Assembly (NCBI GenBank): GCA_964411255.1
Contig: CAYPKD010000008.1
Span: 1 to 59,172, forward strand
Direction of reading: 5' to 3'
DNA length: 59,172 nt
DNA from: an uncultured Gammaproteobacteria bacterium
GTDB lineage: Bacteria; Patescibacteriota; Patescibacteriia; UBA11705; DATKZF01
Shown here piece by piece: positions 19,256 through 51,129 of the stretch (position 1 is the first letter of the stretch; each line of letters begins with the position of its first letter). Under the pieces are notes generated by a model that was not told the DNA's origin, made no database searches, and saw only the letters and a list, made by a program, of their open reading frames with translations. A program made the translations under genes and the position numbers.

Positions 19256-19287
19256 AAATAAAATTTTAACTTATCAACAGTTAAATG

Positions 19288-24214: not shown

Positions 24215-24580
24215 TTAAAATTTCTTCTTTCCCTTCAATGTCAGAATACTAGAGGCAAGAATATTTGCTATTTCAGTTACTTCTTTTAATAATTGTTCGG
24301 CCTTTTCTTGATTAGCTTTTTTAGCATCCCTTAATAATTCCAACCAAAACTTACTTTCATTTGCAGACTTCAAAGAATGATTAAAATAATTTGTAAAATC
24401 TCTTTTCGTACTTCCTGCTTGGGCTTCAATAAAATTTGCACCAATACTTGTTATGCTTCTTAATAATTGCCTACTAATCACTTGTACACCCAAATCTTTT
24501 TTATTCAGGACATCAATGAAATTGATACAATTAATTGCTAAACTATATGTTCTTTTTTTTATATCTTTTTTATTTTCCAT
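24215..24580 (-). CDS. Four-helix-bundle protein (23S rRNA IVS protein / Avd family)
   Basis: 121 aa. ANFIEAQAGSTKRDFTNYFNHSLKSANESKFWLELL is the family signature. Confidence 0.85.
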   Translation of the reverse strand: MENKKDIKKRTYSLAINCINFIDVLNKKDLGVQVISRQLLRSITSIGANFIEAQAGSTKRDFTNYFNHSLKSANESKFWLELLRDAKKANQEKAEQLLKEVTEIANILASSILTLKGKKKF

Positions 24581-24614: not shown

Positions 24615-24652
24615 GTCGCAAAGCGACTCCAAATTTTTACTTTTTGCTTTTT
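24615..24652 (-). repeat. Copy C of the dispersed repeat AAAAAGCAAAAAGTAAAAWTTTGGAGTC plus hairpin
   Basis: The minus strand reads AAAAAGCAAAAAGTAAAAATTTGGAGTCGCTTTGCGAC. It matches 51532..51559 at 27 of 28 positions. Confidence 0.75.
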
Positions 24653-24676
24653 GATTTTTTAATTTTATTCAATTGC

Positions 24677-24726
24677 GTTCCCTGTGAAGCTTTTCTGGTG
24701 AAAGCGTCACCCGCTTCACAGGGAAC
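24677..24726. other. Perfect 14-bp G+C-rich stem with a structured loop
   Basis: GTTCCCTGTGAAGC (24677-24690) pairs with GCTTCACAGGGAAC (24713-24726). The loop contains GGTGA-AAGCG-TCACC. Confidence 0.7.
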
Positions 24727-24792
24727 CCCTCCACTTATATTGTCTCGTTTTCAATTCAAATTGAATAGACTTTTTTGTCGAGCAAACAAAAC

Positions 24793-24823
24793 AAAAAACT
24801 GCTTTTCTCCAAGCAGTTTTTTT
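24793..24823 (-). terminator. Bidirectional terminator after 24885..25838
   Basis: 10-bp stem AAAACTGCTT/AAGCAGTTTT with A/T runs on both sides. Confidence 0.65.
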
Positions 24824-24870
24824 AGTCTTATTTAAATTATTTTTATATCTTGTCAAACACTCTTGACAGC

Positions 24871-24879
24871 TGTGGATAA
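24871..24879 (+). promoter_or_regulatory. Perfect DnaA-box 9-mer (TGTGGATAA on the plus strand)
   Basis: Exact reverse complement of TTATCCACA, intergenic, 5 nt from the stop of 24885..25838. Confidence 0.5.
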
Positions 24880-26539: not shown

Positions 26540-28966
26540 TTACCAACCCATCATTTCATCTATTGTCTTTGAAGTTAAATCAGCTCCAGTAGGATATACA
26601 ATTGATGTTGGAACATTTTGAATAATAAAATCACTGTTAAACATGTTTGCATCAAATACACTTGAGCTAACATGCCTTTTTTCTCCATTATCAATATAAT
26701 AATTATTTGCATCTCCTGCATAACTTATCAATGCTCCGCTTGGATGAGAAAGTGTTGTGATACCTGTTCCTTTTACATAATTTGACCAAAATGCATCTGA
26801 AATATCCATAATCCTATCATTCCATAAATCTCCATAAAGCTGCTCAGCTAATTCTTGAGTTTCAATCCATCTGATCACTCCTCCTGGCTCAACTGCATAG
26901 ACTGGAGCTAAGGATTTAATTTTAACCAACCATGTACTTGGTCTCATAGTTACATTTTCCCCTAAAGGAATGGCAGCTAAATCAGCATCTGAGATGACTT
27001 TTATATGGTCAAAATCTCTAAACCAGCTAAAGAAAATTGTATCACTTGGAAATACATGCCTCTTTCCATCTGATCCTAAAATATAGACTGTTGACATGCT
27101 GCTACTTTTAATTAAATCTTCAACTTTCAAACTTACTGGAAAGCTTGGTTCATATGGTTCTTCTCCGGGTTCTTCTCCAGGTTCCTCGCCTGGCTCTTCT
27201 TCCGGTTCTTCAGGTGCTGCTGTTTGGACATAATCAATAGTGTCTGAATTAATACTAAATGATAAATTTCCAGTTGAGCTTTTAAATCTGGCATATACAG
27301 TTTTTTCTCCATACCCATCAGATAAGACCCAATTTTTTGAAGTATTATATTCTTCCCAGGTTGCGCCAATAAAGTCTGGGTCATTTGAAACGACCATATG
27401 CGTAGCATCTATTGCAAACAATGATAAAGTTACGTTTTGAGAAGTAGTCTCAGTTTCATTGTTGTTTATTTCTATTGATGTTTCTGAAGGATAGACAGCT
27501 GAACTTCCTCCTCCACCTCCGCCACCAACAGCGCCAGTCGTGTAGCTCCATTGACATGGAAGTGCGTCACCTAAAATATTGCCTGATCTGTCTGAAGCAG
27601 TATTAATTGATGCTGTATAAAGAGTAAGTGGATTATAATCATTGTGAGTCCATGTTCTCACTGATCGTCTGCTACTCCAACTTCCTGACCAACCGCCTGG
27701 ATTTGGACTACTTGATCTGTTTGCTGAAGCCATTGCCTCACTGAAAGTCACAACTAGGTCTGCAGATAGTCCGACTCCAGCAGCACCATTTGCCGGAGAA
27801 ACATTCATTATTACTGGATTAATATTATCTCTTAAAAATATTGCAGGAATCACTATCGGAACTGCATAAATATCCAATGGCGGTGTTACTGACTGAGTCA
27901 CAGTATCCACACCAACATCAGCTGCATTTACTCTTCTATTAAATTCAAAAGCTGCCCAGGAATTTCCAGCGATATGAGTAACATTTGATATGCTCGATAC
28001 ATTGCCTCCACTTATGTCATTATACGTAAAATCAGGAGGAGATAATGGAGTACTCCAAGCATTGCCATATACTGGTTCTGGAAATCCAGTCAATGGATCA
28101 ACAAAAACAATTTCAGCTAACTTTTGTCTCTCTGCTGTTTCGACAATTGTTGGTACAGGCGGGCCACCAATATCTGGAACCAATGAGGCACCACCAGCAA
28201 TACAAGAATTTCCCCATAAATCAACCACTGTAGGATTACAATCTAATATATCAATCCCCAATTCAGGAGGCGTAACCAATAAATTCATCATTGAAATAAT
28301 AAAATAATCGCCAGCAGTATGAGTTACACTAAACAATCCATTACCCTCTAAAGGAGGCAAATCTGTATGAAACAAATCAAGAACATTAACTGAACCGTCT
28401 GGGTTTGAACCAAAAACTGGAATAGAACCAATAGCTGGATTTACACTATCAAATTCTGTTAAAGCTATTGGTGTGCCTGCTACGGTTACACTTCCTGGGG
28501 ATGGAGCAATTGGGATATAAGTTCGAACTACTGGCCAGGCTCCGCCATTATCAACTAAACCGACCGGTACATTACTAGGCAGAGCACCGGCAATCGTATA
28601 AATTGATCCCATTTTTGCTTCAATTGTATCAGCAATATCACCCACAACTGCATTATTATTCATCGTTAATATTGCCCAATCGTTTCCTGGCGTATGATTA
28701 ATACTGGCAATACCACCCATACCGGCAGCATTATTATTGGTATAAACAAAATCACTTTTTTGTAAACCAATAGTTCTTGCACTATCTCCCCAAACATGAT
28801 TTGTAAATTTTACTAAAATCATATTTTTTATTGGTGCAGTGCTATCAAATAAAGCCATTGTAATGCCAGCTGTAAATGAAATTGCTTCTGCCGGCCTTGG
28901 CCCTGCAAAAAAAGATAAACTAAAAATAAACGAAACAATTAATAGACTAATAAAAAATTTTTTCAT
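26540..28966 (-). CDS. Secreted surface-layer-like paralogue P1 (SbsA-type Ig domain, Gly linker, beta-sandwich, (GEEP)n linker, shared C-terminal module)
   Basis: Signal peptide. DNINPVIMNVSPANGAAGVGLSADLVVTFSEAM (Big_5-like). GGGGGGGS. (PGEE)n. C-terminus VYILGSDGKRHVFPSDTIFFSWF...YAVEPGGVIRWI... Confidence 0.8.
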   Translation of the reverse strand: MKKFFISLLIVSFIFSLSFFAGPRPAEAISFTAGITMALFDSTAPIKNMILVKFTNHVWGDSARTIGLQKSDFVYTNNNAAGMGGIASINHTPGNDWAILTMNNNAVVGDIADTIEAKMGSIYTIAGALPSNVPVGLVDNGGAWPVVRTYIPIAPSPGSVTVAGTPIALTEFDSVNPAIGSIPVFGSNPDGSVNVLDLFHTDLPPLEGNGLFSVTHTAGDYFIISMMNLLVTPPELGIDILDCNPTVVDLWGNSCIAGGASLVPDIGGPPVPTIVETAERQKLAEIVFVDPLTGFPEPVYGNAWSTPLSPPDFTYNDISGGNVSSISNVTHIAGNSWAAFEFNRRVNAADVGVDTVTQSVTPPLDIYAVPIVIPAIFLRDNINPVIMNVSPANGAAGVGLSADLVVTFSEAMASANRSSSPNPGGWSGSWSSRRSVRTWTHNDYNPLTLYTASINTASDRSGNILGDALPCQWSYTTGAVGGGGGGGSSAVYPSETSIEINNNETETTSQNVTLSLFAIDATHMVVSNDPDFIGATWEEYNTSKNWVLSDGYGEKTVYARFKSSTGNLSFSINSDTIDYVQTAAPEEPEEEPGEEPGEEPGEEPYEPSFPVSLKVEDLIKSSSMSTVYILGSDGKRHVFPSDTIFFSWFRDFDHIKVISDADLAAIPLGENVTMRPSTWLVKIKSLAPVYAVEPGGVIRWIETQELAEQLYGDLWNDRIMDISDAFWSNYVKGTGITTLSHPSGALISYAGDANNYYIDNGEKRHVSSSVFDANMFNSDFIIQNVPTSIVYPTGADLTSKTIDEMMGW
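27156..27212 (-). repeat. 12-nt tandem repeats encoding the (PGEE)n linker in P1
   Basis: GGTTCTTCTCCG GGTTCTTCTCCA GGTTCCTCGCCT GGCTCTTCTTCC GGTTCTTCAGG on the plus strand. Confidence 0.7.
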
Positions 28967-29046
28967 AATTAAAGATTTGATTAATAAGCTAAAATTAGCG
29001 ATATCCTTCTCGCTTAATACTAAATATAAATTTCTTTGTTACTTGT

Positions 29047-29089
29047 ATTATACTAAATGATATAATTTTCAAATATTTATTTATCCACA
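29047..29089 (-). promoter_or_regulatory. P1 promoter region: TGTGGATAA, 28 nt, TATAAT
   Basis: On the minus strand, TGTGGATAA (29089-29081) lies 28 nt upstream of TATAAT (29052-29047). No good -35 hexamer. Confidence 0.5.
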
Positions 29090-29090
29090 A

Positions 29091-29116
29091 ATAAAAAAGA
29101 GGCCCATAACCTCTCT
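29091..29116 (-). terminator. Terminator after paralogue P2
   Basis: Stem AGAGG/CCTCT followed by a T-run on the minus strand. Confidence 0.5.
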
Positions 29117-29132
29117 CTTTTTTTTATAATTT

Positions 29133-31571
29133 TTACCAATCCATCATTTCATCTATTGTCTTTGAAGTTAAATCAGCTCCAGTAGGATATGTAATTGAAG
29201 TCGGTACATTTTGGATAATAAAGTCACTATTAAACATATTTGAGTCAAACACGCTTGAGCTTATCATTTGTTTTTCTCCATTATAAATATAATAATTATT
29301 ACCGTCGCCTTCATAACTGATCAATGCTCCGCTCGGATGGCTAGCCGTGGTAATACTTTCTCCCTTAATATAATTATTCCAAAATGCATCAGAAATATCT
29401 ACAGTTCTCTCATTCCAAATACCTCCGTATAATTGTTCTGCTAAACCTTGATTTGCTACCCACCTAATAACACCACCTGGCTCAACTGCATATACCTCCG
29501 CTAATGATTGAATCTTTACCAACCAAGTTCCTGGTCTCATTGTCACATTCGCGCCCAGCGGAATTGAGGCTAAAGTTGAATCAGATATCACTTGTACATC
29601 ATCAAAATCCCTAAACCAACTAAAATATACTGTATCAGTTGGAAAGACATGTCGCTTACCATCTGATCCTAATATATATACGGTTGACATGCTGCTATTT
29701 TTTACTAAATCGCCTACCATCAAACCTGCTGGGAAAGACGGTTCAGTAGGTTCTTCTCCGGGCTCTTCTCCGGGTTCCTCTCCTGGCTCATCAGGACCAG
29801 CTGTTTGGACATAATCAATGGTGTCTGAATTAATACTAAATGATAAATTTCCAGTTGAACTTTTAAATCTGGCATAAACAGTCTTTTCGCCATAACCATC
29901 AGTTAATGTCCACGCTTTTGAAGTATCATACTCTTCCCAAGTGGCTCCAATAAAGTCTGGGTCATTTGAAACGACCATATGCGTAGCATCAATTGCAAAT
30001 AATGATAAAGTTACGTTTTGAGAAGTAGTTTCAGCATCTCCACTATTTATTTCAATAGACGTTTCACTTGGATAAATGCCAGCACTACCACCTCCACCGC
30101 CTCCAGCACCGCCAGCTGTTGTAAAATTCCATAGATATGGCGAAGGATCACCCATTGTATTGGCTGCAGGTGAAAAATCAGTAATATTATTTAATGTAGC
30201 CAGATAAGGTGTACTTAGAGCAAAATCATTATGGGTATATGTTCGCACAGTATTATTTGAGCTCCATGAACCTGCCCACCCCCCTGGATTTGGTGCTGAA
30301 GGAGCTACAGCAATTGCACTGATAGATTCACTAAAATTGAAAATAATATTCTGGCTTATTGGAACATTAATGGCATTGTTAGCAGGGGTGGTACTCATTA
30401 CAACTGGATCTACATTATCAGCAATTGGTGTAGCTAAAGCCAAGAAATTGCCGAGAAAATCAATTAAAGGAAACGCTCCAGGCACTATCATATCAGCTCC
30501 TAAATCACCAGGAATGATCGGTAAGTCAGTTGTATATGTTCCCCAAGTATCTCCAGGTATATGAGTAACTGAAGTCATTGCAGTTGCTCCAGCGCCACCA
30601 TTGCCATCACCATAACCTATATCCCAGCCTATTAGAAGTGGGGATCCTGGAGGAAAAGGTCCACTAGTGCCAAATACAGCTTCTGGCACACCTCGAACAC
30701 CATCAAAAAATTCAAACTCTCCCATTGTGGCATTAGTAGTAGTTTCGGTTGAGAATAAAGTTGGTGGTGTAGCATCAACCTGAAGAGGAGCTCCAATTGG
30801 CAAACAAGGATTGCCCCATAAATCGGTAACTGCAACACAATCAATAATATCAGATCCTATCTCTGTTCCTACAAGTGGAATATTTAAGGTTAAAAATACT
30901 TTATAATCACCTGGAGTATGGTATGCATTTGCCAATCCATTTCCTTCAAGCGCAGGCACTGGGTTATCAATATATGATAAATCTGCACTGGCAATTGATC
31001 CATCAGGATTTGATCCATAAGCTGGTATAAATTGACCTGTATTAAAATTCATAAATTCTAACACACTTCTATTAAAACCTGGGCCGCCCGAAACTAATGC
31101 GCCTGGGATACCTGTTCCCGGATAAAAAATCTGTCCTATAGGTGCGCCAGAATTATCAGTTGGAGAAACTTGTGCGCCACCTGGCAATGCGCTGCCAATA
31201 GTATAAATTGACGCTTGCTTTGCTTCAATTGTATCAGCAAAATCTCCAGCAACCGCTCCGGCGTTCATGGTTAATATTGCCCAGTCATTTCCTGGTGTAT
31301 GATTAACACTGGAAATACCTCCCATACCTGCAGCATTATTATTGGTATAAATAAAATCACTTTTTTGTAAACCAGCTGTTCTGGCACTATCAGACCATAC
31401 ATGATTTAAAAATTTTACAAAAAGTAAATTACTGTTTGGCGCTGCACTGTCGAACATTGCATATACAATAGATGATGTATATGCATTTGCAGGGCTTACT
31501 GGCATAAATATAAAAGTAGATGCCAAAATAAAGATAAAAACAAATAAACTTAAAAATATTTTCTTTTCCAT
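29133..31571 (-). CDS. Secreted surface-layer-like paralogue P2
   Basis: Same architecture as P1. The N-terminal 130 aa and the C-terminal roughly 340 aa are highly similar to P1, and the centre is divergent. Confidence 0.8.
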   Translation of the reverse strand: MEKKIFLSLFVFIFILASTFIFMPVSPANAYTSSIVYAMFDSAAPNSNLLFVKFLNHVWSDSARTAGLQKSDFIYTNNNAAGMGGISSVNHTPGNDWAILTMNAGAVAGDFADTIEAKQASIYTIGSALPGGAQVSPTDNSGAPIGQIFYPGTGIPGALVSGGPGFNRSVLEFMNFNTGQFIPAYGSNPDGSIASADLSYIDNPVPALEGNGLANAYHTPGDYKVFLTLNIPLVGTEIGSDIIDCVAVTDLWGNPCLPIGAPLQVDATPPTLFSTETTTNATMGEFEFFDGVRGVPEAVFGTSGPFPPGSPLLIGWDIGYGDGNGGAGATAMTSVTHIPGDTWGTYTTDLPIIPGDLGADMIVPGAFPLIDFLGNFLALATPIADNVDPVVMSTTPANNAINVPISQNIIFNFSESISAIAVAPSAPNPGGWAGSWSSNNTVRTYTHNDFALSTPYLATLNNITDFSPAANTMGDPSPYLWNFTTAGGAGGGGGGSAGIYPSETSIEINSGDAETTSQNVTLSLFAIDATHMVVSNDPDFIGATWEEYDTSKAWTLTDGYGEKTVYARFKSSTGNLSFSINSDTIDYVQTAGPDEPGEEPGEEPGEEPTEPSFPAGLMVGDLVKNSSMSTVYILGSDGKRHVFPTDTVYFSWFRDFDDVQVISDSTLASIPLGANVTMRPGTWLVKIQSLAEVYAVEPGGVIRWVANQGLAEQLYGGIWNERTVDISDAFWNNYIKGESITTASHPSGALISYEGDGNNYYIYNGEKQMISSSVFDSNMFNSDFIIQNVPTSITYPTGADLTSKTIDEMMDW
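29749..29795 (-). repeat. 12-nt tandem repeats encoding the (PGEE)n linker in P2
   Basis: GGTTCTTCTCCG GGCTCTTCTCCG GGTTCCTCTCCT GGCTCATCAGG. Confidence 0.7.
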
Positions 31572-31683
31572 ATTGTTTAAAGTTTTATTAATAATTAAGT
31601 AAGATTATATTTAATTTATTAAGCTAAAATAAACGAATAATGTCGTTTTTCAATTGACAAAATAACATTTAACTTGTGTATTT

Positions 31684-31726
31684 ATTATACTAAAATACAA
31701 AATTTGCTGATATAGACTTATCCACA
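31684..31726 (-). promoter_or_regulatory. P2 promoter region: TGTGGATAA, 28 nt, TATAAT
   Basis: Minus-strand TGTGGATAA (31726-31718), exactly 28 nt, then TATAAT (31689-31684). Confidence 0.5.
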
Positions 31727-31773
31727 TAAAAAAAAGCCCAAAAGGACCTTTTTCTATATAAACTAATTTTCTA

Positions 31774-34700
31774 TTACAAACCCATCATTTCAACAATTGA
31801 CATTGAAGGCAAGTCTGCTCCAGGAGGATATACGATTGAATTTGATACATTTTGAATTACAAAGTCGCTGTTAAACATATTTGCATCAAATACGCTTGAG
31901 CTTATCAGTCTTGTTAAACCATTATCAATGTAAATATTATTTCCATCTCCCTCATAACTTATCAATGCTCCGCTTGGATGGCTAACAGTTGTAATGCCGT
32001 CTCCTTTGATATAATTTGGCCAAAATGCATCTGATACATCTACTATTATCTGATTCCAAATACTTCCGTAAAGCTGTTCTGCTATTTCCTCATTAGCTAT
32101 CCATCGAATAACTCCGCCTGGTTCAACAGCGTATACTGGAGCTAAAGATTGAATCTTTACCAACCATGTTCCTGGTCTCATTGTTACATTTGCACCTAAT
32201 GGTATGGCTGCTAAGTCTGCGTCTGAAATAACTTGTACTGCTGAAAAATCCTTAAACCAACTGAAATATACTTTGTCTGTTGGGAATACATGTCTTTTGC
32301 CATCTGATCCTAATATATAAACGGCTGAAGAATTGCTGCCCTTTATCAAATCACCTACTTTTAATTCTGAAGGATAAACTGGCTCTTCGCCTGGTTCTGG
32401 TTCTTCTCCAGGCTCTTCAGGTTCACTTGCTGTTTCAACATAATCAATGCTGTCTTGGGCAATAGTCTTTGCCGTATTACCTGAAGTACTCTTAAAATTT
32501 GCATATACTGTTTTTGTTTCATAACCACTGGTCAATGTCCATGTCTTTGAATTAGCATATGGTTCCCAAACTGCGCCCACAAAATTAGGATCGTTTGATA
32601 AGGTCATTTCATCTGCATCAGCTGCTACAATTGACAATGTTACTACTTGAGATTCTGTTTCAGCAACATCATTATTAATAATGACAGAAACATTTGACGG
32701 ATATACAGCACTACCTCCACCACCGCCTCCTCCAGGAGAAGAAGTTGTAAAGCTCCATGGGTTAGCTACAGGACCAGGGGCTAATCCCAATGCATTTACA
32801 TCCTGTCCGGCCGTAATCTGTTCAGTATATGACGTTCCGTAATCAAATAAATTATGTGAATAAGTAGCAACTGTATTTCCTGCACTCCAAGACACTGCCC
32901 AGCCACCTGGATCAGGACCAGCTGTTTGAGCTTGAGTTACTGTTCCTGTACTCATTGCTTCACTGAAAGTAACTATTAAATTTTGATTAACAAATACGCT
33001 TGGGGCTCCGCTTACTGGATTTGTTGACAAAATAATTGGAGCTGCGCCATCTGTTTCTGCCACAGTGCCTGAGCCAATTGTCACCATTGGATTGCCTGCT
33101 AAATCAGTAATCAGCCCTGTGGTTACAGTTGTAATATCAGGGATAGCTCCTGTATCCTGTCCTCCTAAAGGAGTTGGGAAATAAAATGTAGCATACTGAT
33201 CATTAGCAACATTGGCAGTTGGATGATTTGTATTAAAGGATGGTATTCCTGCTTCTCCTGTTAAGGCTAATCCTGCCCCGCCCCCATTATAAGAAGCATC
33301 AATAACTGGCTCATTAAATGTTACGCGATAAGTATCAATTATTCCCGGACTTGGAGGGCCAACACCGTCTGTATCTTGGGTATAGGCTGCAGTAATTGTT
33401 GGATTTTGCGTATCGACATCAAAGAAAGCAACCCATGTTAGTACTTCAACATTACCAGCCACGTCTGAAGCAGCTGAACTATCTAAACTTACACCTAAAA
33501 CATCTTCATTAGCATCAGTGATATTGAAAGTCTCTGTCCAAATTGTATTACCGCCGCCCCACGCTCCGTCAGAATTTGATGTAATGACACCAGCAGTGGC
33601 TCCAAAATTACTGGTCGGAGTAGAAGCTGGGTCCATTGCTTCATTATATGTAAATGTTACTTCCTGAGTTAAATCCCCATCATATATTGGATTAGTGCCA
33701 GCGCCTGGAACTGAAAATGGTTGAGTTACATCAACAACTATTGGTAATGCTGCTGATGCTACGCTAGTATTTCCAGCAGCATCAGTAGCTGTTGCTGTTA
33801 TATTATGAGCTGTACCAGTCTGACCGGCAGTAGTCATACCGCCAACAGTTACATTATAATTTCCTCCAGTTGCTGTTCCAGTTCCAATATTGCCATCAAC
33901 ATTACTGATTATAGTTATAGTTGACCCTGCTTCACCAGTTCCGTCAAACTGAGGAGTGGCATCGTTAGTTATATCATCAATGCTAGATGCGCCAGTATCA
34001 CTTGCTGCATTTAAATCTGGAACTGAAGGTGCTGCTGGTGGTGTATTATCAGTATTTAACTGACCTACTAACTGATAAGAGGTAAAACCTGCTAAATCAT
34101 CAGCTGTAACACATAAATAATCAGTATGGTCACCAGTAATAAAGAAATCAGTGCTATTAGTAAAAGGATTACCATAGGTATCAGTACCATCGCATGTGCT
34201 ATCAGCGCTATATCCATATTCTAAACTACCAGCATCTAGATTAGCATCAGTAACGGTCACGTTAATTGTATCTGTTTGTACTGGGCCAGCATCTGTACCA
34301 TTATTTATTGTAAAACCAGGAGCTGATGTATCAATCGTAATAGTCAGCGCTGGAGATGCCGGACTGCTGTTAGTAGCTGCATCAGTGGCCACAACGGTCA
34401 TGTTATGAGTTCCTTCAGATAATACAGAAACTGAGTAATTATAGATTCCACCACCAGCAGTCGTGCTACCAACTGCTCCGTCAATACTGCTGGTAAAAGC
34501 GACTGTAGATCCTGCTTCAGCTGTACCATCCAGTTGAGGAGTAGTATCACTGGTAATATCATCAACACTTGATGGTCCTGTATCACTTCCAGCATTTAGG
34601 TCTGGTGCTGGCGGCTGAGCTGGCGGTGTATTATCTGTATTTAACTGTCCTACCAACTGGTATGCGAAATTAAATGCTTGATCATATGCAACAACACATA

Positions 34701-35547
34701 AATAATCAGTATGATCACCTGTAATATTAAAATTTGTACTATTGGTAAATGGATTACCATAAGTATCCAAACCATCGCATGTGCTGTCAGGACTATAGCC
34801 GTAATTCAAACTTGAAGCGACTAAATTTGTATCGGTTACAGTTATATTTATAGTGTCTGTCTGCACAGGGCCAGCAGCTGTACCATCATTTATTGTAAAA
34901 CCAGGGGGGGTGCCGTCAATTGTTGCCGTTGCAATACCTGAGCCTGCTGCAGGACCAGTATCCACAGTATCTGAAATATTACCTGCTGAAACAGCAGCAG
35001 TAACTGTATTTGTGTCAGTAGCTCCTGCATTCATTTCATAAGCCACATAATATCTCTCTGTAGTACCTAAAGCGCAATTTGGATTAATATCACCAGAAGC
35101 AGCAGAACCATCAATAAAATCTTTATCAAAAAACACTTGCGGAGTGGCGTCAAATGCATTTGTTGCTCCACCAGCAGTACCTGAATATCCAATTAAGGTA
35201 TCTGAACTAGGACTAAATAACGCATTTCCATTTCCTCCGCAGCCTAAACCGTCATCATCAAGATATAATAAAACTCTATCAACATCAGCTTCTGGTGCTG
35301 TGCCTCCAGCGTCAATAATAATACTCTCTAAACTTCTATTATCAGCATCTTGTAAGTCAATACTCAACATAGCCTGAACTCCGCCAGGAGCAACCACTCC
35401 ACCAATAATAGCTACAGTCGCAGTATCAAAATTAGCTGCGCTGGCTACATTAACTGAAAAATTAAAAGCAAATGCGAATACCATTACAAAAATCATTAAA
35501 CTGATTAATGCAATTGGCATAATTTTGTTAATTTGTTTTTTTGTCAT
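31774..35547 (-). CDS. Secreted surface-layer-like paralogue P3 (1257 aa, with tandemly duplicated Ig-like block)
   Basis: Signal peptide, Thr/Gly/Ala/Asp-rich Ig-like repeats, Big_5-like segment, GGGGGGS, the same beta-sandwich, a PEEPGEEPEPGEEP linker and the same C-terminal module as P1 and P2. Confidence 0.8.
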   Translation of the reverse strand: MTKKQINKIMPIALISLMIFVMVFAFAFNFSVNVASAANFDTATVAIIGGVVAPGGVQAMLSIDLQDADNRSLESIIIDAGGTAPEADVDRVLLYLDDDGLGCGGNGNALFSPSSDTLIGYSGTAGGATNAFDATPQVFFDKDFIDGSAASGDINPNCALGTTERYYVAYEMNAGATDTNTVTAAVSAGNISDTVDTGPAAGSGIATATIDGTPPGFTINDGTAAGPVQTDTINITVTDTNLVASSLNYGYSPDSTCDGLDTYGNPFTNSTNFNITGDHTDYLCVVAYDQAFNFAYQLVGQLNTDNTPPAQPPAPDLNAGSDTGPSSVDDITSDTTPQLDGTAEAGSTVAFTSSIDGAVGSTTAGGGIYNYSVSVLSEGTHNMTVVATDAATNSSPASPALTITIDTSAPGFTINNGTDAGPVQTDTINVTVTDANLDAGSLEYGYSADSTCDGTDTYGNPFTNSTDFFITGDHTDYLCVTADDLAGFTSYQLVGQLNTDNTPPAAPSVPDLNAASDTGASSIDDITNDATPQFDGTGEAGSTITIISNVDGNIGTGTATGGNYNVTVGGMTTAGQTGTAHNITATATDAAGNTSVASAALPIVVDVTQPFSVPGAGTNPIYDGDLTQEVTFTYNEAMDPASTPTSNFGATAGVITSNSDGAWGGGNTIWTETFNITDANEDVLGVSLDSSAASDVAGNVEVLTWVAFFDVDTQNPTITAAYTQDTDGVGPPSPGIIDTYRVTFNEPVIDASYNGGGAGLALTGEAGIPSFNTNHPTANVANDQYATFYFPTPLGGQDTGAIPDITTVTTGLITDLAGNPMVTIGSGTVAETDGAAPIILSTNPVSGAPSVFVNQNLIVTFSEAMSTGTVTQAQTAGPDPGGWAVSWSAGNTVATYSHNLFDYGTSYTEQITAGQDVNALGLAPGPVANPWSFTTSSPGGGGGGGSAVYPSNVSVIINNDVAETESQVVTLSIVAADADEMTLSNDPNFVGAVWEPYANSKTWTLTSGYETKTVYANFKSTSGNTAKTIAQDSIDYVETASEPEEPGEEPEPGEEPVYPSELKVGDLIKGSNSSAVYILGSDGKRHVFPTDKVYFSWFKDFSAVQVISDADLAAIPLGANVTMRPGTWLVKIQSLAPVYAVEPGGVIRWIANEEIAEQLYGSIWNQIIVDVSDAFWPNYIKGDGITTVSHPSGALISYEGDGNNIYIDNGLTRLISSSVFDANMFNSDFVIQNVSNSIVYPPGADLPSMSIVEMMGL
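32381..32422 (-). repeat. Repeats encoding the (PGEE)n linker in P3
   Basis: GGCTCTTCGCCT GGTTCTGGTTCTTCTCCA GGCTCTTCAGG. Confidence 0.6.
33740..34925 (-). repeat. Tandem duplication (two units of about 590 bp / 195 aa) inside P3
   Basis: The protein block PGFTIN(D/N)GT.AGPVQTDTIN(I/V)TVTD.NL...DSTCDG.DTYGNPFTNST.F.ITGDHTDYLCV...QLVGQLNTDNTPPA...DTG.SS.DDIT.D.TPQ.DGT.EAGST occurs twice. Boundaries are approximate. Confidence 0.7.
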
Positions 35548-35631
35548 AAGAATAATAAAAATTAGTTATTAAAATAACTTAGGCAATTTTGCCTTTTATA
35601 AATATATAAAAATATTAGTTTTCTATCTTTA

Positions 35632-35671
35632 ATTATACAACATTTTATCGATATTAGTAAAGTTATCCACA
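35632..35671 (-). promoter_or_regulatory. P3 promoter region: TGTGGATAA, 25 nt, TATAAT
   Basis: Minus-strand TGTGGATAA (35671-35663), 25 nt, then TATAAT (35637-35632). Confidence 0.45.
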
Positions 35672-35716: not shown

Positions 35717-37399
35717 TTATTGATTTGACTGCTCTTGAAATTCTTCCAAATCCTCAAATTCCAAAGCCAACATTTCCAATAGGTTTTGAGCATTGGCAAA
35801 AGACTCACCTTCATAATAATCAGTATAAAATGAATCTGAAAGATCATCCACTTCATCTGCCCAATCAGTACCATACAGCATACTTGCATCTTCTTCTGTT
35901 TCCAGCCAATGAAGCTCTCCGCCTTCAGCTGCTAAAAATACCTTTGGTACTGACTGTAGCTTAAATAAACTTCCTGGTTTATATTGTACATTACTACCTA
36001 ATGGATATGATGCTAATTCTTCTGCTGATATTGTTTCTACACTGCTAAAATCATCAAACCATGAAAAGAAAATATTTTCATTTGGAAATACATGCCTAAC
36101 ATCACTTGAATCCAAGAAATAAACTGTAGAAAAATCAGGGGATTTTACCAATCGTCCATCTAAAGTTTCATATGTTTCAAATTCAACAAAACCAAAAACT
36201 GGAAAATCTATACCGAAAAACGGCATTTTTAGAAATTCTCCATCTGCTTTGGCAAAAAACAATGACAAACCAACCAGGTTTGAATTAACCACTACGTGCA
36301 CTTCACCCATAGAATTTGTTTCTTGGCTGTCTATGTATAATATTTCATCATATGAACCCTTAGTTGAAATCAATTCAATATGCTTGCCACTGACAGGATT
36401 TTCATTTTCATCAAGAACAGTCACTGTCACTTCCATGTCTTCTCCCACTGTACCAATAATTCGGTCTGGTATAATAGTTGAATTTTCATATGGCAAAGTG
36501 TCAGAAGGTGTGATATTAACTGTAATTGGCTCTTGCTGCGACCAAGTTCCTCTTGAATCTTTTGATTTCGTTTTAATTATATATTCACCTGGCGCAATAT
36601 TTGACCAGTCATATTTCCAAGTTAAAAAATATGGTTCAATGCCTGTCACGTCCATCCAGGTATCAGATTCACCCTGCTGGGTAATGCTAATCTGAACAAT
36701 TTCAACATTTGCTCCGCCTTGGTCTTTGGCCATTCCTTCAATCTGATAAGAATTGGCTGAATAAGAATCGCCATCAAATAAATTTGTAATATTTACCTTT
36801 GGGCCAAGCGGATCCTGATTAGCGCGTGTACTCAGCTGGTCATTTCCGATGACAACATTCTCAGTCGGGCCATTAACACCCAGTGCTGTAAAAATACCCA
36901 AATCTCCTGGATCATACATGCCATCTTCATTAAAATCTGTAAGCATTGGGATTCTGAATTTTAATGATTTGTTTGAAGCAATGTTTTTCTTTGTAGTGAC
37001 AGTGACAAACATGCGCAATCCTTCAGCTGAAATAAATTCATAAATATAATCAAAAAGCCAGCCGTTTATTTCATTTTTCCAGTCGCCAGCCAGTATTAAA
37101 TTATCTATGCCCATTCCTTGAAATCCTTCTGGACCGTCATCTGACCATAATTGTACTTGATCAATTTCACTTAGACTTGCGGTTCCAATATTTTGGAGTG
37201 TTAATGTTTCCAAAACATCTCCACCCATTACATCACATGGGAGAGTAAAATCCATTACTAAAAAATCAAAATTTTCTGAATAAACATAAGCTGTACCAAT
37301 CGGATGAACTTCAACCATTGATGAAGTAAAAGCCCTGGCTTCAAATCCTAAAAAGATAAAAGCCAAGCAGAGAAATAATACTAAAAATTTTTTAAACAT
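35717..37399 (-). CDS. Secreted paralogue P4 (Ig-like/Big_1-like domains plus shared C-terminal module)
   Basis: Signal peptide. C-terminus TVYFLDSSDVRHVFPNENIFFSWFDDFSSVETISAEELASYPLGSNV...LHWLETEEDASMLYG matches the module of P1-P3. Confidence 0.75.
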   Translation of the reverse strand: MFKKFLVLFLCLAFIFLGFEARAFTSSMVEVHPIGTAYVYSENFDFLVMDFTLPCDVMGGDVLETLTLQNIGTASLSEIDQVQLWSDDGPEGFQGMGIDNLILAGDWKNEINGWLFDYIYEFISAEGLRMFVTVTTKKNIASNKSLKFRIPMLTDFNEDGMYDPGDLGIFTALGVNGPTENVVIGNDQLSTRANQDPLGPKVNITNLFDGDSYSANSYQIEGMAKDQGGANVEIVQISITQQGESDTWMDVTGIEPYFLTWKYDWSNIAPGEYIIKTKSKDSRGTWSQQEPITVNITPSDTLPYENSTIIPDRIIGTVGEDMEVTVTVLDENENPVSGKHIELISTKGSYDEILYIDSQETNSMGEVHVVVNSNLVGLSLFFAKADGEFLKMPFFGIDFPVFGFVEFETYETLDGRLVKSPDFSTVYFLDSSDVRHVFPNENIFFSWFDDFSSVETISAEELASYPLGSNVQYKPGSLFKLQSVPKVFLAAEGGELHWLETEEDASMLYGTDWADEVDDLSDSFYTDYYEGESFANAQNLLEMLALEFEDLEEFQEQSNQ

Positions 37400-38417: not shown

Positions 38418-41400
38418 TTAGTATGTGAAGGTATTACCATTAACTGGTGTTTCCTTGGTTAATGAAGAATCAACCCAAGGAGGACCTGCTATAGGAAGTA
38501 ATTCAGTATCAGACCAGTCAATACCTCGTTGTGTTACAGAAGTAACAGCAAGGTCACCTGTCAAACTGGCAGTAAAGCTCTGTGGATTTACAGAACCTTG
38601 AGTATCAGTAATTAATTTGACACTCTTAGTTGTACCAGAAGAGACAGATAGTGTTGCATTCCAGCCAGTAGTACCTACGACATCAGCATATCCACCCATA
38701 TAAGCTCCTAATGGAAGAGCTGACCAGTATACTACTGAATTATCAAGAGTTCTCAATTCAGTATTATTAACACCACCACCAGCAATTGTACCACCAAAAT
38801 AGAATTCCATATTCATGACAGTAATGTCATCACCAGTCGCTGTTAAGTCAAGTCTTAATGCTTCTTGGTCTGGAGCGCCAGTTGCACTGCCACCAGGTGA
38901 ATTTACATTCTTGGTAACAGTTAGTAAACCGTCATATTGGTAGAAGTCATTTCCACCATATACTAGGCCAGGAACAACTGGGTTACCCCAAGTATCGTCA
39001 ATAGTATCAACAGTCTGCAAAGCAGCTCCTGAATCCATACCGACAGCTTCCATCAAGTATGTATCATTACCGCCAGCAGCCCAGTTACTCCAGTTAGCAC
39101 CTGTCTGAGTAGTTGCATCAGCAATACCCATAACAAAGTCATCACCTGAAGTTAACTGAGTCTTATCCTTTAATCCTACTTCACCAGTAAGAACCATTGA
39201 TCCGTCCTGAGGTACGACTAATGTACCAGATGTCAGGTTAAGAACACCTAAACAGGTTACAGGATCTAATGGAACTGAAGCTCCAAGCTGTGTAGCACCG
39301 TCCCATAGAGTTACATCACTCACATTAGCAGCACAGTTAACTGCACCTGCTGCAGTATTAGCCATTTGGCCAGCAAATACTGAAATCTTGGTAACGTCTA
39401 CATCTTCATATCGAGCTTCAAGCTTATATTTAAACACAGGATTTCCGCTTGATCCAGCAACTAATTGCGCAGCTACTGGAGTATCAGCATCCAATGTTAC
39501 ACGAAGCTCACCATTAGCTTGATATGTCTGAACAGGACTGATTGTTCCTGGTAAAGTTAAAGTACCAGCTACACCACTGTCATCACCGACAGCAGTAACT
39601 GCTGTGACATTGGCGATAAAGGTATTGGTAGCTGTTGGATTGGTATTGTCAACCAATAATGCAAGATTTTCAATATCAGTCATTGAGGCAATAAAGCCGT
39701 CATCAATGTTAAAGACAACAGTTTCAGGAGCAGTAGCAGAATACTGTTCTGTTTCACCGATTTGAACTAGGCCATCCCATAACTCAAAATTATTTAAGTT
39801 AGCCCATGTTTCAGTACCCCAGTTAGTAATGGTAATAGATGTTACTTTTATGTCTTCGCCACTACCAGTAGCATCTAATTCAATATTAGCCATTTCATGG
39901 TTTTGTGAACCAGCAATTACAGTACCGGCAATTGGGTTTGCACCCATGTCAGCATTTAATGCTGGGCCTTGGGCAGTCATAACATTACAGTTAATAACTG
40001 CGTTTGGTGTTGGGGTAATAGTCTTATTTGAAGTCAAACCTTTAACATTTGTTAAAGCAGTAGCTGGGTTCATTGAGACCTGATACTGCCTTCCAGCAGT
40101 GCCATTTGCTAATTTACCAGTTACAAAGACTTCATCAGTACCGCTCATCAATTCAAAGCTTGATGAGAAAGTGCCAGTAAATGTTGGCCATGCACCTGTC
40201 AAGTTAACAGGACCGCCCAATACTGTGCCAGTATCATCTAAGATTCTTAGCAAAGTGATATCATTTACTGTTTCAGCACCGCCAATACCTGTAACAGTTA
40301 CAGCCATTTGTCCAAATCTGACATCTTCACCCTTGATTAAGAAATCAAAGCTGCAAAGTTCTACATCAGATGAACCAACTGGAATATTTCCAGTTGCTGG
40401 AGCATTTGAACCTTTACTGACTGTTACAGTACCCTGGTTGATAGTGGTCAAAGGACCAACACCAGCCCAAGTACCTGCAGTCAAAGGTACGCCATAACCA
40501 TATGTAGCACCAGTAGCCTGGATAGTCCACGCAGAACCATCCCAGATATCAAAGCCAACAGTTCGTCCTGAACCGCCTACGACATCACTTCTACCGCCTA
40601 ATTCTACATAATTACCCTGAGTGACCTGTAATCCAGGTGTAGCCCAGACTAATTTGTCATCAGTGGTCCAATCAGCTGTACCATATGACATGCCAGCAGT
40701 AGTATTATATAATTCTAAGTCATCTAAATCAGATGTGATGAAACTTGAAGCAGTTCCTCTCATAAGAGTAACGTAGTCGATGTTAACATCTTCTACTGCA
40801 TTTGCCCAAAGTTTCATGTGTACAAAGATATGATCAGTAGCGTCAATATCTACAGTTGGAGTACCTGATGGTTGTAAAGTACCATTGTCAACTGTAAGAC
40901 CACCTACATTAATCGCAGTAAGGGTCATAGTGTTTCCATTTATTGGGAAAGCACCAGATACAGATGAAGCATTACTAACAATGTCAGATGCAGATTCAAT
41001 TCCAAATACTACTTCACCAGTACCGCCACCAAAACCAGGACCGTCAAAGGCTAATTCTAATGGCTGTGTAGCGCCATCAGACACAGTCCAACCGCCTGAT
41101 ACGTTAAATACTGCTTTATGATCAGCATTCAATGTTTGGCTAGTACCAACCATTGTGCCGTTTTCATATAATTTAGCAGCAGCAATTAAGGCATCTGTAC
41201 TTAAACCGCTTCGTAAGAAGCTAAGTTTATCGATTTTTACATCACCACCTGTAGCAGTAAAATTAACTTTTACAGCAGGGATATCAATAGCTGAATCAGG
41301 TACAGACTGGGCTGCTGGAGTATCAGCTGCCAAAGCAACTGTTAAAGCTCCGCCTGTTCCAGGACCTGGAACAACAGCACCGCCGCCCTGAGAATCATCT

Positions 41401-42107
41401 ACTAAATCAGCTTCGCCACCAGTAATTTCAGCACCATCACTGTATGAATCTAATACAGCTTGTGTAGTTACGTTAACATATTCCCAATAGAATCTGTTTG
41501 CGTAAAATGCTGATTCTGAGGCAATTCTTCTCTTCATGCCATCCCAGATTAAATATACATCTGGGCTTCCAGAAGCTTGTATTAAAAAGCCGTCTGGATA
41601 CCAAGTACCATCTAATTCAACACCTGTATCAGTATAATTTGGCCAAAAAGCGTCTGAAACATCAATCACTCTAGAGCCCCAATCTGCGCCAAACATAGTA
41701 ACAGCAGATGCTTCACTGTTCACCCAATATAATTTACCATCTCTACCAACTGCATAAACTTTTGGAATAGACTGGATCTTTATCAGTTTGGTGCCATAAC
41801 GAGTAACAACATTGCCTGCTAACGGAATAGCTGCAAGCTCTGCGTCTGTTATAACAATCACGCCTGAAAAGTCATACTGCCAAGTGAAATAATACTTGTC
41901 TTGAGGATATACATATCTATTTCCATCGCCTGCATTGAAATAGACAGCGTCAAAGCTACCCATGATAGTATCACCACCGGCAAGTGTTGCAGCACTTGCT
42001 ACTGGAACTAGAGTAGCGATGCCCATTGACCAAACAATAGTCGCAAGGACAACCCCAAAAGTAAAAACTTTTTTTAGGTTATTCATAATAATTTTAATCT
42101 CCTTCAC
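38418..42107 (-). CDS. Major S-layer-like protein P5 (1229 aa; shared module at the N-terminus, then repeated beta-sandwich-like units)
   Basis: SD AAGGAG. Signal peptide ...VPVASAAT. N-terminus AVYFNAGDGNRYVYPQDKYYFTWQYDFSGVIVITDAELAAIPLAGNV...LYWVNSEASAVTMFG. The remainder is Thr/Gly/Ala/Val-rich. Confidence 0.8.
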   Translation of the reverse strand: MKEIKIIMNNLKKVFTFGVVLATIVWSMGIATLVPVASAATLAGGDTIMGSFDAVYFNAGDGNRYVYPQDKYYFTWQYDFSGVIVITDAELAAIPLAGNVVTRYGTKLIKIQSIPKVYAVGRDGKLYWVNSEASAVTMFGADWGSRVIDVSDAFWPNYTDTGVELDGTWYPDGFLIQASGSPDVYLIWDGMKRRIASESAFYANRFYWEYVNVTTQAVLDSYSDGAEITGGEADLVDDSQGGGAVVPGPGTGGALTVALAADTPAAQSVPDSAIDIPAVKVNFTATGGDVKIDKLSFLRSGLSTDALIAAAKLYENGTMVGTSQTLNADHKAVFNVSGGWTVSDGATQPLELAFDGPGFGGGTGEVVFGIESASDIVSNASSVSGAFPINGNTMTLTAINVGGLTVDNGTLQPSGTPTVDIDATDHIFVHMKLWANAVEDVNIDYVTLMRGTASSFITSDLDDLELYNTTAGMSYGTADWTTDDKLVWATPGLQVTQGNYVELGGRSDVVGGSGRTVGFDIWDGSAWTIQATGATYGYGVPLTAGTWAGVGPLTTINQGTVTVSKGSNAPATGNIPVGSSDVELCSFDFLIKGEDVRFGQMAVTVTGIGGAETVNDITLLRILDDTGTVLGGPVNLTGAWPTFTGTFSSSFELMSGTDEVFVTGKLANGTAGRQYQVSMNPATALTNVKGLTSNKTITPTPNAVINCNVMTAQGPALNADMGANPIAGTVIAGSQNHEMANIELDATGSGEDIKVTSITITNWGTETWANLNNFELWDGLVQIGETEQYSATAPETVVFNIDDGFIASMTDIENLALLVDNTNPTATNTFIANVTAVTAVGDDSGVAGTLTLPGTISPVQTYQANGELRVTLDADTPVAAQLVAGSSGNPVFKYKLEARYEDVDVTKISVFAGQMANTAAGAVNCAANVSDVTLWDGATQLGASVPLDPVTCLGVLNLTSGTLVVPQDGSMVLTGEVGLKDKTQLTSGDDFVMGIADATTQTGANWSNWAAGGNDTYLMEAVGMDSGAALQTVDTIDDTWGNPVVPGLVYGGNDFYQYDGLLTVTKNVNSPGGSATGAPDQEALRLDLTATGDDITVMNMEFYFGGTIAGGGVNNTELRTLDNSVVYWSALPLGAYMGGYADVVGTTGWNATLSVSSGTTKSVKLITDTQGSVNPQSFTASLTGDLAVTSVTQRGIDWSDTELLPIAGPPWVDSSLTKETPVNGNTFTY

Positions 42108-44282: not shown

Positions 44283-44339
44283 ATACTACAAAAGTATACA
44301 CCAGTGTGGACTTTTATATATTTTAATGATAAAATACAA

Positions 44340-44654
44340 ATGAATAATATGGTAAATAACCAACAAAAAATAATTCGGGTATCAATTTCTGAAGGAGCAA
44401 GGTTATTAGGAGTTGATCCACATACTATAAGACGAGCTATTAAGGCTGGTGAATTAACATATGTTGTTGTCCAAGGAAGATATAAAATAAATTTTGAAGG
44501 TTTAATTAAATGGTCTCAAAGAAAAATCAGGATAAAAAATAAAATGGAAAAAGACGGAATAGGTCAATATGTAGATAAATGGAAAATTTCAAATAAATTA
44601 TACTCCCCAAATCCAGATGCTATTAAGAATAAAGATCCCGATATGAAGCGCTAA
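44340..44654 (+). CDS. Excisionase/MerR-type helix-turn-helix DNA-binding protein
   Basis: SISEGARLLGVDPHTIRRAIKAGELTYVVVQGRYKI. ATG at 44340 preferred over the GTG at 44304, but the start is uncertain. Confidence 0.7.
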   Translation: MNNMVNNQQKIIRVSISEGARLLGVDPHTIRRAIKAGELTYVVVQGRYKINFEGLIKWSQRKIRIKNKMEKDGIGQYVDKWKISNKLYSPNPDAIKNKDPDMKR

Positions 44655-45964: not shown

Positions 45965-46405
45965 TTATTTTTTTTGTTTTTTACCAAAATATCCATTTTC
46001 TTTTGCTTTTTGAATCTCATTCACACACTTTTCACAAATACCAAAAAAGAAAAAAGTATTTGTTTCAATCTGAGATTTCAAGTCTTTTGACACTTTTTTA
46101 TTGATTTTTTTTGTATCAATACCTTTTACATTATAGATCCGGTGACATTTTCTGCAAACAAAATGAGCATCATTATTTTTTGCATCATATCTTGTCGGAC
46201 CCTTATCAAAATCTAATGCGGAAATTATATTTTCTTCAACCAAATTATGAAGATTTCTATAAACAGTAGCAAAGCTTATTTGAGGCAATAAATTACGAAC
46301 TGCTAAAAAAATCTCTTCAGCTGTTGGATGTCTATCAGTATTAAGCAGGAAATTCATGATCATCTTTCTTTGGTTTGTTAATCTAATTTTTGGCTTATTT
46401 AACAT
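45965..46405 (-). CDS. fur: Fur-family metalloregulator
   Basis: RLTNQRKMIMNFL...HPTAEEIF winged helix, plus CRKC and CEKC zinc-site pairs. Confidence 0.85.
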   Translation of the reverse strand: MLNKPKIRLTNQRKMIMNFLLNTDRHPTAEEIFLAVRNLLPQISFATVYRNLHNLVEENIISALDFDKGPTRYDAKNNDAHFVCRKCHRIYNVKGIDTKKINKKVSKDLKSQIETNTFFFFGICEKCVNEIQKAKENGYFGKKQKK

Positions 46406-46435: not shown

Positions 46436-46454
46436 GTTATTATCATTATTATAT
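46436..46454 (-). promoter_or_regulatory. Fur-box-like operator upstream of the Fur-family gene
   Basis: The minus strand reads AATAATGATAATAAC, compared with the consensus GATAATGATAATCATTATC, about 30 nt upstream of the start. Confidence 0.4.
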
Positions 46455-46487
46455 ACAGTATATTACTATTTGAGAATAATTCAAGTC

Positions 46488-46496
46488 TTTATCCAC
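46488..46496 (+). promoter_or_regulatory. Perfect DnaA-box 9-mer TTATCCACA
   Basis: Exact match, intergenic, upstream of the Fur-family gene. Confidence 0.5.
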
Positions 46497-46554
46497 AATT
46501 CTTTTCCGTCATGTAGCACATATCATATAACACATAGCAAAGGCAAAGGCGAGT

Positions 46555-47345: not shown

Positions 47346-47633
47346 CTATTCATCTGATTTTTTAATGGTAATTGCCTTTCCATTAATTAATGCATCGCTT
47401 ACTTTGACATATGCTGAATTTAATATTCGCTGAAAAGTACTCTGAGAAGTCTTCATTTGCTTGGCGCACTGATTTTGATCAAAGTTTTTAATATTTTTTA
47501 ATCTTAAAGCCTCAAGCTCCTCCCGGTCTAATTCAATTGACTTTAAATGCCTCATAGGTATCCCATGTGGCTTAAAATATGTTACATTTGGACGAAATCT
47601 AATAAATCGTCTTTGTCTTGGTCTTGGAGTCAT
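47346..47633 (-). CDS. DUF134-family predicted DNA-binding protein
   Basis: RRFIRFRPNVTYFKPHGIPMRHLKSIELDREELEALRL... followed by an HTH-like segment QCAKQMKTSQSTFQRILNSA. Confidence 0.75.
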   Translation of the reverse strand: MTPRPRQRRFIRFRPNVTYFKPHGIPMRHLKSIELDREELEALRLKNIKNFDQNQCAKQMKTSQSTFQRILNSAYVKVSDALINGKAITIKKSDE

Positions 47634-50949: not shown

Positions 50950-51129
50950 TTTTTCCTCCTATGGCTATTTAGTACCTTAAAAAAAAATAGCAAAAAACAC
51001 ATTTTTTGTCAACCACTTCTTTAATTTACATAAATCATAAATATAAATAGTCTAAAATATGTCCCATGCTAGATTTTTAAAAGAAAAAATAAGCCAACTC
51101 AGACCTGTATATATTTTATCCCCAAAAAA

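Follow-up and report, generated by a model that had tools for sequence, protein, structure and literature searches.

A conserved 9-bp element with the sequence of a DnaA box at predicted promoters of a cell-envelope gene cluster in an uncultured Patescibacterium

We analysed a 59,172-nt stretch of DNA (contig CAYPKD010000008.1, positions 1 to 59,172; hereafter the window) from an uncultured bacterium of the Patescibacteria, whose records come from sediment and seawater metagenomes only, and we focus here on a 9-bp element, TTATCCACA (TGTGGATAA on the opposite strand), that has the sequence of a DnaA box. The gene map, built from the list of open reading frames, places nearly all protein genes from 0 to 53.4 kb on the minus strand and leaves a total of 5173 nt of intergenic DNA with a G+C content of 27%. 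Read along the minus strand, a conserved cluster comprises, in this order, a Fur-family gene, a glycosyltransferase gene, a gene for a divergent HTH_17 protein, and genes for an extracytoplasmic function (ECF) sigma factor and a DUF5667 protein; genes for a 1229-aa protein, a tetratricopeptide repeat (TPR) protein and a 560-aa Big_1 protein, and three Big_5 genes; genes for a second ECF sigma factor and a 317-aa anti-sigma-like protein, a 23S_rRNA_IVP gene and the gene for a 193-aa protein; and genes for an LTD-domain protein, a glycosidase and an 835-aa protein heading an operon that resembles a type IV secretion system (T4SS). The three Big_5 genes, whose promoters are denoted P1, P2 and P3, encode paralogous surface proteins of 808, 812 and 1257 aa that are 55-59% identical and have a very conserved C-terminal domain in common. 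An ECF sigma factor used as query against the GTDB species representatives gave one distant match (31% identity) and no close relative.

The exact 9-mer is present five times in the window, where 0.77 occurrences are expected, a computed value that agrees with the hand estimate of fewer than one given in an earlier note on this DNA, and five or more copies were found in 0 of 100 dinucleotide shuffles. All five copies are intergenic, as that note had claimed and as the count and the gene map bear out; the expectation for the 5173 nt of intergenic DNA is about 0.06, and TGTGGATAA is the most frequent 9-mer there that is not of low complexity. TTATCCACA lies on the minus strand at 24871-24879 and on the plus strand at 29081-29089, 31718-31726, 35663-35671 and 46489-46497, the last of which had been placed one nucleotide too low, at 46488-46496; four boxes read TGTGGATAA in the direction of the downstream gene. 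The nearest coding match is TTATCCACT at 53073, inside dnaX, where it had been reported. One-mismatch variants are not enriched in the window (27 against 21 expected), and a search of the window for further promoters, with boxes of up to two mismatches at N24-29 (N being the number of nucleotides between box and -10 element), gave 49 matches against 35 +/- 7 in shuffles, with nothing convincing beyond the sites described here. The features at the three surface-gene promoters are as follows.

29081..29089, minus strand: P1 box TGTGGATAA, 5' of the 808-aa Big_5 surface gene (26540-28966)
29047..29052, minus strand: predicted P1 -10 element TATAAT, 28 nt past the box
29093..29119, minus strand: terminator hairpin of the 812-aa gene, adjoining the P1 box upstream (-12.2 kcal/mol, z -3.3)
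31718..31726, minus strand: P2 box TGTGGATAA, 5' of the 812-aa Big_5 gene (29133-31571); orthologous box at L007:6705
31684..31689, minus strand: predicted P2 -10 element TATAAT, 28 nt past the box
35663..35671, minus strand: P3 box TGTGGATAA, 5' of the 1257-aa Big_5 gene (31774-35547)
35632..35637, minus strand: predicted P3 -10 element TATAAT, 25 nt past the box

When re-measured, the spacings reported earlier (box-N28-TATAAT at P1 and P2, N25 at P3) were correct, and rho-independent terminator hairpins of the preceding genes were found directly 5' of the P1-P3 boxes (z = -3.3 to -4.4), in agreement with the description of each box as lying just past the terminator of the previous gene. The -35 hexamers of the surface-gene promoters are poor, and their -10 elements are perfect, each with a preceding G. 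As paralogous copies, P1 and P2 have genes that are 59% identical and a box-to--10 spacer that is about 64% identical (counted on the alignment). The upstream regions of P1 and P2 are still alignable, and within this genome the three surface-gene boxes therefore do not count as independent; to the question of duplication our answer is partly yes, in that the three boxes descend from one ancestor. The independence of the evidence comes from the comparison across lineages and not from the paralogues of the window.

For this comparison, syntenic loci, reaching +/-10 kb around the window genes or their homologues, were fetched by way of homologues of the surface, Fur and 317-aa proteins and of the shared C-terminal domain, and the resulting set comprises up to seven further uncultured Patescibacteria lineages with protein identities to the window of 28-89%. 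Homologues of the 808-aa protein were very sparse, with only one full-length match (28% identity); a trimmed domain alignment of four sequences, used as metagenome query, yielded five loci, with L009-L011 being not syntenic and uninformative, and the P0007 locus (L006) lacks a box but is not syntenic either. The synteny of L004, the most distant lineage (28-47% protein identity), was verified gene by gene. At the promoter of the first Big_5 gene, the equivalent of P3, the box is present in seven of seven lineages including the window, in one of them with one mismatch; the sites outside the window are listed here with their distances to TATAAT.

L007:2750: exact box, N25
L008:536: exact box, N26
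L018:20210 (= L020:6082): exact box, N25
L022:2395: exact box, N26
L004:4223: exact box, N50
L021:6469: box with the sequence AGTGGATAA, N26

The mean pairwise identity in the alignment of P3 equivalents is 0.97 within the box; the 30 nt on its upstream side reach 0.33 and the 20 nt on its downstream side 0.43, and the columns that are invariant number eight of nine in the box versus three of 50 in the flanks. The exact box also precedes further Big_5 paralogues at L007:6705 (N28) and L022:6821 (N27). In about 210 kb of pooled non-redundant sequence, 17 exact boxes are intergenic, against roughly 0.3 expected, and two are coding (L018:12279 and L022:13208), against roughly two expected, both expectations being rough estimates; the tally of exact TTATCCACA consists of five window sites and 12 in related loci. 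The box is not part of a repeat family, and its coding copies occur at the rate of chance, so general over-representation does not account for it. The proposal that the box itself is under constraint is upheld, in that it is present at orthologous promoters, where up to seven lineages keep it between randomised flanks. The accompanying claim that the spacer is not conserved was too strong for P1 versus P2; across lineages, the flanks are at random level. On the strength of these comparisons, we regard it as highly probable that the box is a real, conserved cis-regulatory element.

The same data bear on the simplest alternative, namely that the boxes are a functionless relic of tandem gene duplication together with chance. 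P1-P3 do precede paralogues that are 55-59% identical, the alignable upstream regions of P1 and P2 with their 64% spacer identity fit such an origin, and about one chance box per window is expected. This alternative is nevertheless extremely improbable, because orthologous boxes persist although their flanks have fallen to random-level identity and because they persist at three unrelated loci, namely the surface genes, the Fur gene and the 3' end of a sigma operon; in addition, protein identities of 28-64% argue against the fetched loci being recent horizontal copies of one segment.

Two observations concern the leaders of the Big_5 genes. The 5' untranslated regions of all three (28990-29015, 31620-31650 and 35575-35600) contain a small hairpin, after which two of them have ATTTTAGCTTA, and no recognisable Shine-Dalgarno sequence precedes their ATG, such sequences being present at other genes (e.g. 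at 50949).

Box positions relative to the -10 element are nearly uniform: TATAAT or TATACT follows at N = 25-28 in 14 of the 17 forward sites, the others being two sites with N38 and one with N50; compared with the usual 25-28 nt or so, the longer spacings of about 37-39 and 50 nt add roughly one and two helical turns. Conservation covers exactly 9 bp, the adjoining positions -1 and +1 being variable, and the motif has no palindromic symmetry. With transcription assumed to start 7 nt past the predicted -10 element, the box would span about -38 to -49, with its centre, in 14 of 17 sites, at -42 to -45, which agrees, for these assumed starts, with the activator-type position near -45 that had been suggested. 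From the sites, their geometry and their conservation, which can be read directly, we infer promoter activity and describe the box as a conserved upstream element of predicted sigma-70-type promoters in a cell-envelope/host-interaction cluster of about 35 kb. At these promoters the box would abut or replace a weak -35 element, with a near-perfect -10 element (G-TATAAT or TATACT) 25-28 nt downstream. Since the block is asymmetric and exactly 9 bp long with variable neighbours, its reader would be a monomeric, sequence-specific protein; monomeric reading of 9 bp fits domain IV of DnaA. Once bound, this putative protein would most likely activate transcription in the manner of a class II activator, and repression by occlusion is also possible.

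In several respects this arrangement resembles class II activator promoters, such as those with CRP or FNR at -41.5 or with PhoB at pho boxes that replace the -35 element: the box would abut or replace a weak -35 hexamer, the predicted -10 element is strong, and alternative box positions lie about one and two helical turns upstream (N37-39 and N50). In contrast to the CRP, FNR and PhoB sites, the box is an asymmetric 9-mer and neither a dimer palindrome nor a direct repeat, and its transcription starts are predicted. Several other identities were considered by eye against the known consensus sequences and rejected for lack of a partner element, namely the ECF -35, sigma-28 -10 and sigma-H -35 elements, the CRP half-site, the direct repeats of WalR/PhoB, and IHF sites. 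The possibility that the 9-mer is a -35 element read by one of the two ECF sigma factors of the cluster deserves separate mention, as the cluster contains two ECF sigma/anti-sigma-like gene pairs and the reversed box (see below) stands at the end of one such operon. We consider it scarcely credible, because no conserved -10-like motif is found 16-20 nt downstream in 11 aligned sites, the partner being a sigma-70-type TATAAT at 25-28 nt, and because the Fur promoter has a conserved TTGAAT-N16-TATACT of its own; ECF -35 elements are usually 'AAC' motifs, which the box does not resemble.

The promoter of the Fur-family gene provides a second set of orthologous sites and has the following features in the window.

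46489..46497, minus strand: box TGTGGATAA, 5' of the Fur-family gene (45965-46405)
46457..46484, minus strand: predicted Fur-gene promoter, with -35 TTGAAT (46484-46479), a 16-nt spacer and -10 TATACT (46462-46457)
46436..46452, minus strand: Fur/PerR-box-like sequence ATAATAATGATAATAAC, just past the -10 element; in five lineages

Here the layout in the window is box-N4-TTGAAT-N16-TATACT, and the box is present in five of five lineages including the window (exact in L015, L018/L019 and L023, and TGTGGACAA, with one mismatch, in L017). The block common to the five lineages reads box-N3/4-TTGAAT-N16-TATA(C/A)T followed by the Fur-box-like ATAATGATAAT; the box forms its upstream edge, and sequences further upstream are unrelated. 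By its resemblance to the Fur-box consensus we take ATAATAATGATAATAAC to be Fur/PerR-box-like, and the Fur-family gene is probably autoregulated.

Variant boxes extend the set to two further genes.

19271..19279, minus strand: variant box TGTTGATAA, 5' of the 835-aa gene and 38 nt before TATAAT (19232-19227)
51116..51124, plus strand: variant box TTATCCCCA, oriented in reverse, with -35 TAGACT 5 nt and TATTAT 28 nt further on; HU gene at 51189-51470

TGTTGATAA stands at N37/38 before the TATAAT of the 835-aa gene in four lineages (the window, L020, L021 and L022) with unrelated spacers. At the HU gene, TTATCCCCA is identical in L018:8670 (N27) and lies 4-5 nt before the -35 and 27-28 nt before the -10 element in both lineages; the HU promoter of L023 has lost this site and carries TGTGTATAA at N39 instead. 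The earlier note had connected the box with surface-protein expression; the element is not exclusive to surface-protein genes, since the Fur-family gene, the T4SS-like operon with its variant box and probably HU belong to the targets as well. The operon under the 835-aa protein (window 10964-19148; L022:15125-20942) is T4SS/conjugation-like, with PrgI, a TraC-like protein and a P-loop ATPase of the TraG/VirB4 type. It corresponds to the T4SS of Patescibacteria that is reportedly homologous to the conjugation machinery of monoderms (bioRxiv 10.1101/2025.01.22.634366).

The fifth exact box differs from the others in orientation and surroundings.

24871..24879, minus strand: reversed box, reading TTATCCACA in gene direction, 5 nt past the stop codon of the 317-aa anti-sigma-like gene
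24849..24870, minus strand: palindrome GCTGTCAAGAGTGTTTGACAAG, directly after the reversed box; TGTC...GACA, with inner pairs that covary between lineages
24793..24822, no strand assigned: bidirectional terminator hairpin, after the reversed box and the palindrome

It is present in four of four lineages including the window, unchanged in L020 and L021 and with one mismatch, as TTGTCCACA, in L022, and it opens a module of about 200 nt of conserved non-coding DNA (window 24675-24879, minus strand; L020:11245-11460; L021:10962-11180; L022:11046-11258). The order within the module is TTATCCACA, the palindrome G-N-TGTC...GACA, the bidirectional terminator, GACAAAAAAGTCTATT, GAYAAT and a long 5' stem-loop, GAGGGGTTCCC...GGGAAC, that shows compensatory changes; internal distances are constant between lineages, the box-to-GAYAAT distance being 125-127 nt in four of four. 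A search of the module after the reversed box against Rfam gave only sub-threshold chance matches and no family, and an antisense promoter driven by the reversed box was rejected, as the four lineages share no consistent -10 element. The reversed box, to judge from this arrangement, belongs to a conserved module different from the promoter boxes, where it could block or end transcription of the ECF sigma operon or serve as a distal site for the next promoter. According to Schaefer and Messer, a DnaA box at the end of the E. coli asnC gene reportedly acts as an orientation-dependent transcription block. Similarly, the reversed box lies 5 nt past a stop codon, before a hairpin and terminator, at the end of the ECF sigma operon; unlike the asnC block, it is contained in a module of about 200 nt that includes the promoter-like element of the next operon.

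The 9-mer matches the DnaA-box consensus TTATNCACA, and its most likely reader is DnaA, given that the match shares both the exact 9-bp boundaries and the asymmetry of the universal high-affinity DnaA box; we put the probability that DnaA is the functional reader at about 0.52. One recurrent natural variant, TTGTCCACA (L017 and L022), corresponds to the actinobacterial DnaA-box consensus. Binding by DnaA would make expression of the major Big_5 surface proteins, the Fur/PerR-like regulator, the T4SS-like operon and probably HU dependent on how much initiator is present or on its nucleotide state. In several bacteria DnaA is an activator or repressor acting from promoter-proximal boxes (PMC8203912), and both activation and repression are documented for consensus boxes in promoter-proximal intergenic DNA (PMC8203912, PMC11317965). 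The sites described here resemble the DnaA-regulated promoters of E. coli (dnaA, nrdAB, polA, purH), Bacillus subtilis (sda, dnaA) and Caulobacter (gcrA) in having the consensus TTATCCACA in promoter-proximal intergenic DNA. They differ from them in that the boxes are single and not in pairs 2-3 bp apart, that their position is fixed at about -42 to -45 in a class II-like manner, that the targets are surface proteins, a Fur-like regulator and a T4SS-like operon rather than replication or nucleotide functions, and that the host is an uncultured Patescibacterium, in which DnaA is the putative binding protein.

The earlier note had pointed out that dispersed boxes can titrate DnaA. Like the titration loci of other bacteria (datA in E. 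coli and the DnaA-box clusters of B. subtilis), the perfect boxes of the window are intergenic and lie outside oriC, several of them within 22 kb, and for E. coli, a high and conserved density of DnaA motifs in the vicinity of origins has been described (PMC12371093). Unlike those loci, the window has no local cluster of at least 4-5 boxes, or any cluster within about 1 kb, and instead has one box per promoter in a fixed geometry, the boxes being single and 2.5-11 kb apart. No origin is nearby: a candidate oriC at the skew and strand switch at about 53.5 kb was rejected, as the switch is a glycan gene cluster with a box-free intergenic region and is followed by minus-strand genes again. A reservoir or titration function without a role in transcription is therefore very improbable in our judgement, since titration does not need the spacing of 25-28 nt and the orientation relative to the -10 element that are fixed across lineages, and this fixed geometry points to transcription.

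A number of observations weigh against DnaA as the reader, or against a uniform promoter element. All known sites fall between 16.6 and 52 kb of the window, and about 44 kb of flanking sequence of the same genome, including 10-kb extensions on each side, proved to contain none; this confinement to one cluster suggests a local regulon. dnaA and oriC are in neither the window nor any fetched locus, and the DnaA specificity of this lineage is assumed. A search for RNA runs holding the window sequence found none. A second box 2-3 bp away is at background level, the best neighbouring 9-mer matching at 2-7 of nine positions, mostly 4-5, and at the Fur promoters the best-matching neighbours fall on the -35 hexamer. 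Occupancy by DnaA in E. coli is nearly restricted to paired boxes; of 32 single boxes with the consensus sequence, only 13 were bound (PMC11317965). Position 5 of the box is C at nearly all listed sites, although DnaA tolerates any nucleotide there, and two conserved variants, TTATCAACA (C6) and TTATCCCCA (A7), alter bases that are critical for E. coli DnaA. Finally, the TATAAT spacing in L004 is 50 nt, and two further paralogues in that lineage have no box.

Several of these points would be accounted for if a dedicated transcription factor encoded in or near the cluster read the box, its DnaA-box specificity being coincidental and DnaA being at most a bystander or competitor. Seven of seven sites lie in one conserved 35-kb cluster and none in the flanks, the near-constant C at position 5 and the conserved variants TGTTGATAA and TGGGGATAA, which hit DnaA-critical bases, are in keeping with another specificity, and the boxes are single where E. 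coli DnaA prefers pairs (PMC11317965). The cluster encodes small helix-turn-helix proteins, and the candidates are the conserved divergent HTH_17 (excisionase/MerR-like) protein at 44304-44654, whose gene is syntenic in the window, L018 and L023, and a DUF134 protein at 47346-47633; we know of no binding motif for either. On the other side, the chance that a 9-bp operator of arbitrary sequence agrees with the DnaA consensus, boundaries included, is only about 1 in 10^5, an argument weakened by the fact that the finding was selected for this match, and DnaA could hardly be excluded from promoters that carry a perfect TTATCCACA, which is expected to be a nanomolar DnaA site. We consider a dedicated factor a less favoured but serious rival reader, and all readings other than DnaA and a dedicated factor are, even when taken together, unlikely.

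The genomes of Patescibacteria are tiny and encode few regulators, their lifestyle depends on the cell surface, and to our knowledge almost nothing has been established about transcriptional regulation in these bacteria; our literature search found nothing that links DnaA boxes to Patescibacteria or to surface-protein promoters. The element described here gives these bacteria a well-defined cis-element validated by evolution, outlines a small regulon of surface proteins, a T4SS-like operon, a Fur-like regulator and probably HU, and points to an obvious candidate reader. If DnaA is that reader, its role as a transcription factor would gain a new class of targets and a new architecture, with single boxes at a class II position, and replication status would be linked directly to host-interaction functions. 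We speculate, with considerable reserve, that DnaA was recruited in these ultra-small, probably episymbiotic bacteria with few regulators as a master activator of class II type for the host-interaction apparatus. Single boxes at a fixed promoter position on the Big_5, T4SS-like, Fur/PerR-like and HU genes might then let replication or nucleotide status switch surface remodelling and secretion directly. Should the reader be another protein, it would have to share the highest-affinity DnaA site with DnaA or compete for it, which would be of interest for replication control itself.

Some further observations concern the gene context. A domain of about 130 aa without a Pfam match is common to five large surface proteins (26540-28966, 29133-31571, 31774-35547, 35717-37399 and 38418-42107), with the motif GDLIK..STVY.LG.DGKRHVFP..YFSWF.DFS.V..IS..LA..PLG.NV. 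In four of them it lies at the C-terminus, and in the 1229-aa protein a short matching motif suggests an N-terminal position; linkers of the PGEE type lie N-terminal to it, and the domain may be a cell-envelope anchoring module. The glycan gene cluster (window 53640-59172; L012:3432-15526) lies on the plus strand, has a lower G+C content of about 28-30%, and would serve glycan synthesis and export, with a Wzm/Wzt-type ABC transporter and glycosyl- and methyltransferases; it breaks the otherwise uniform minus-strand orientation, and the local change in GC skew arises because this plus-strand cluster interrupts the minus-strand genes. Next to the module of the reversed box, the 23S_rRNA_IVP (four-helix-bundle) gene (window 24215-24580; L021:11256-11504) is inserted between the conserved leader and the gene for the 193-aa protein, and the same place in L020 and L022 is without it. 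A repeated motif, AAAAAGCAAAAAG...GGAGTC-hairpin-GAC, is found at 24615-24665, 5' of the 23S_rRNA_IVP gene, and at 51640-51715, 3' of dnaX (also inverted at 51530-51560), and is possibly a small repeat or mobile element.

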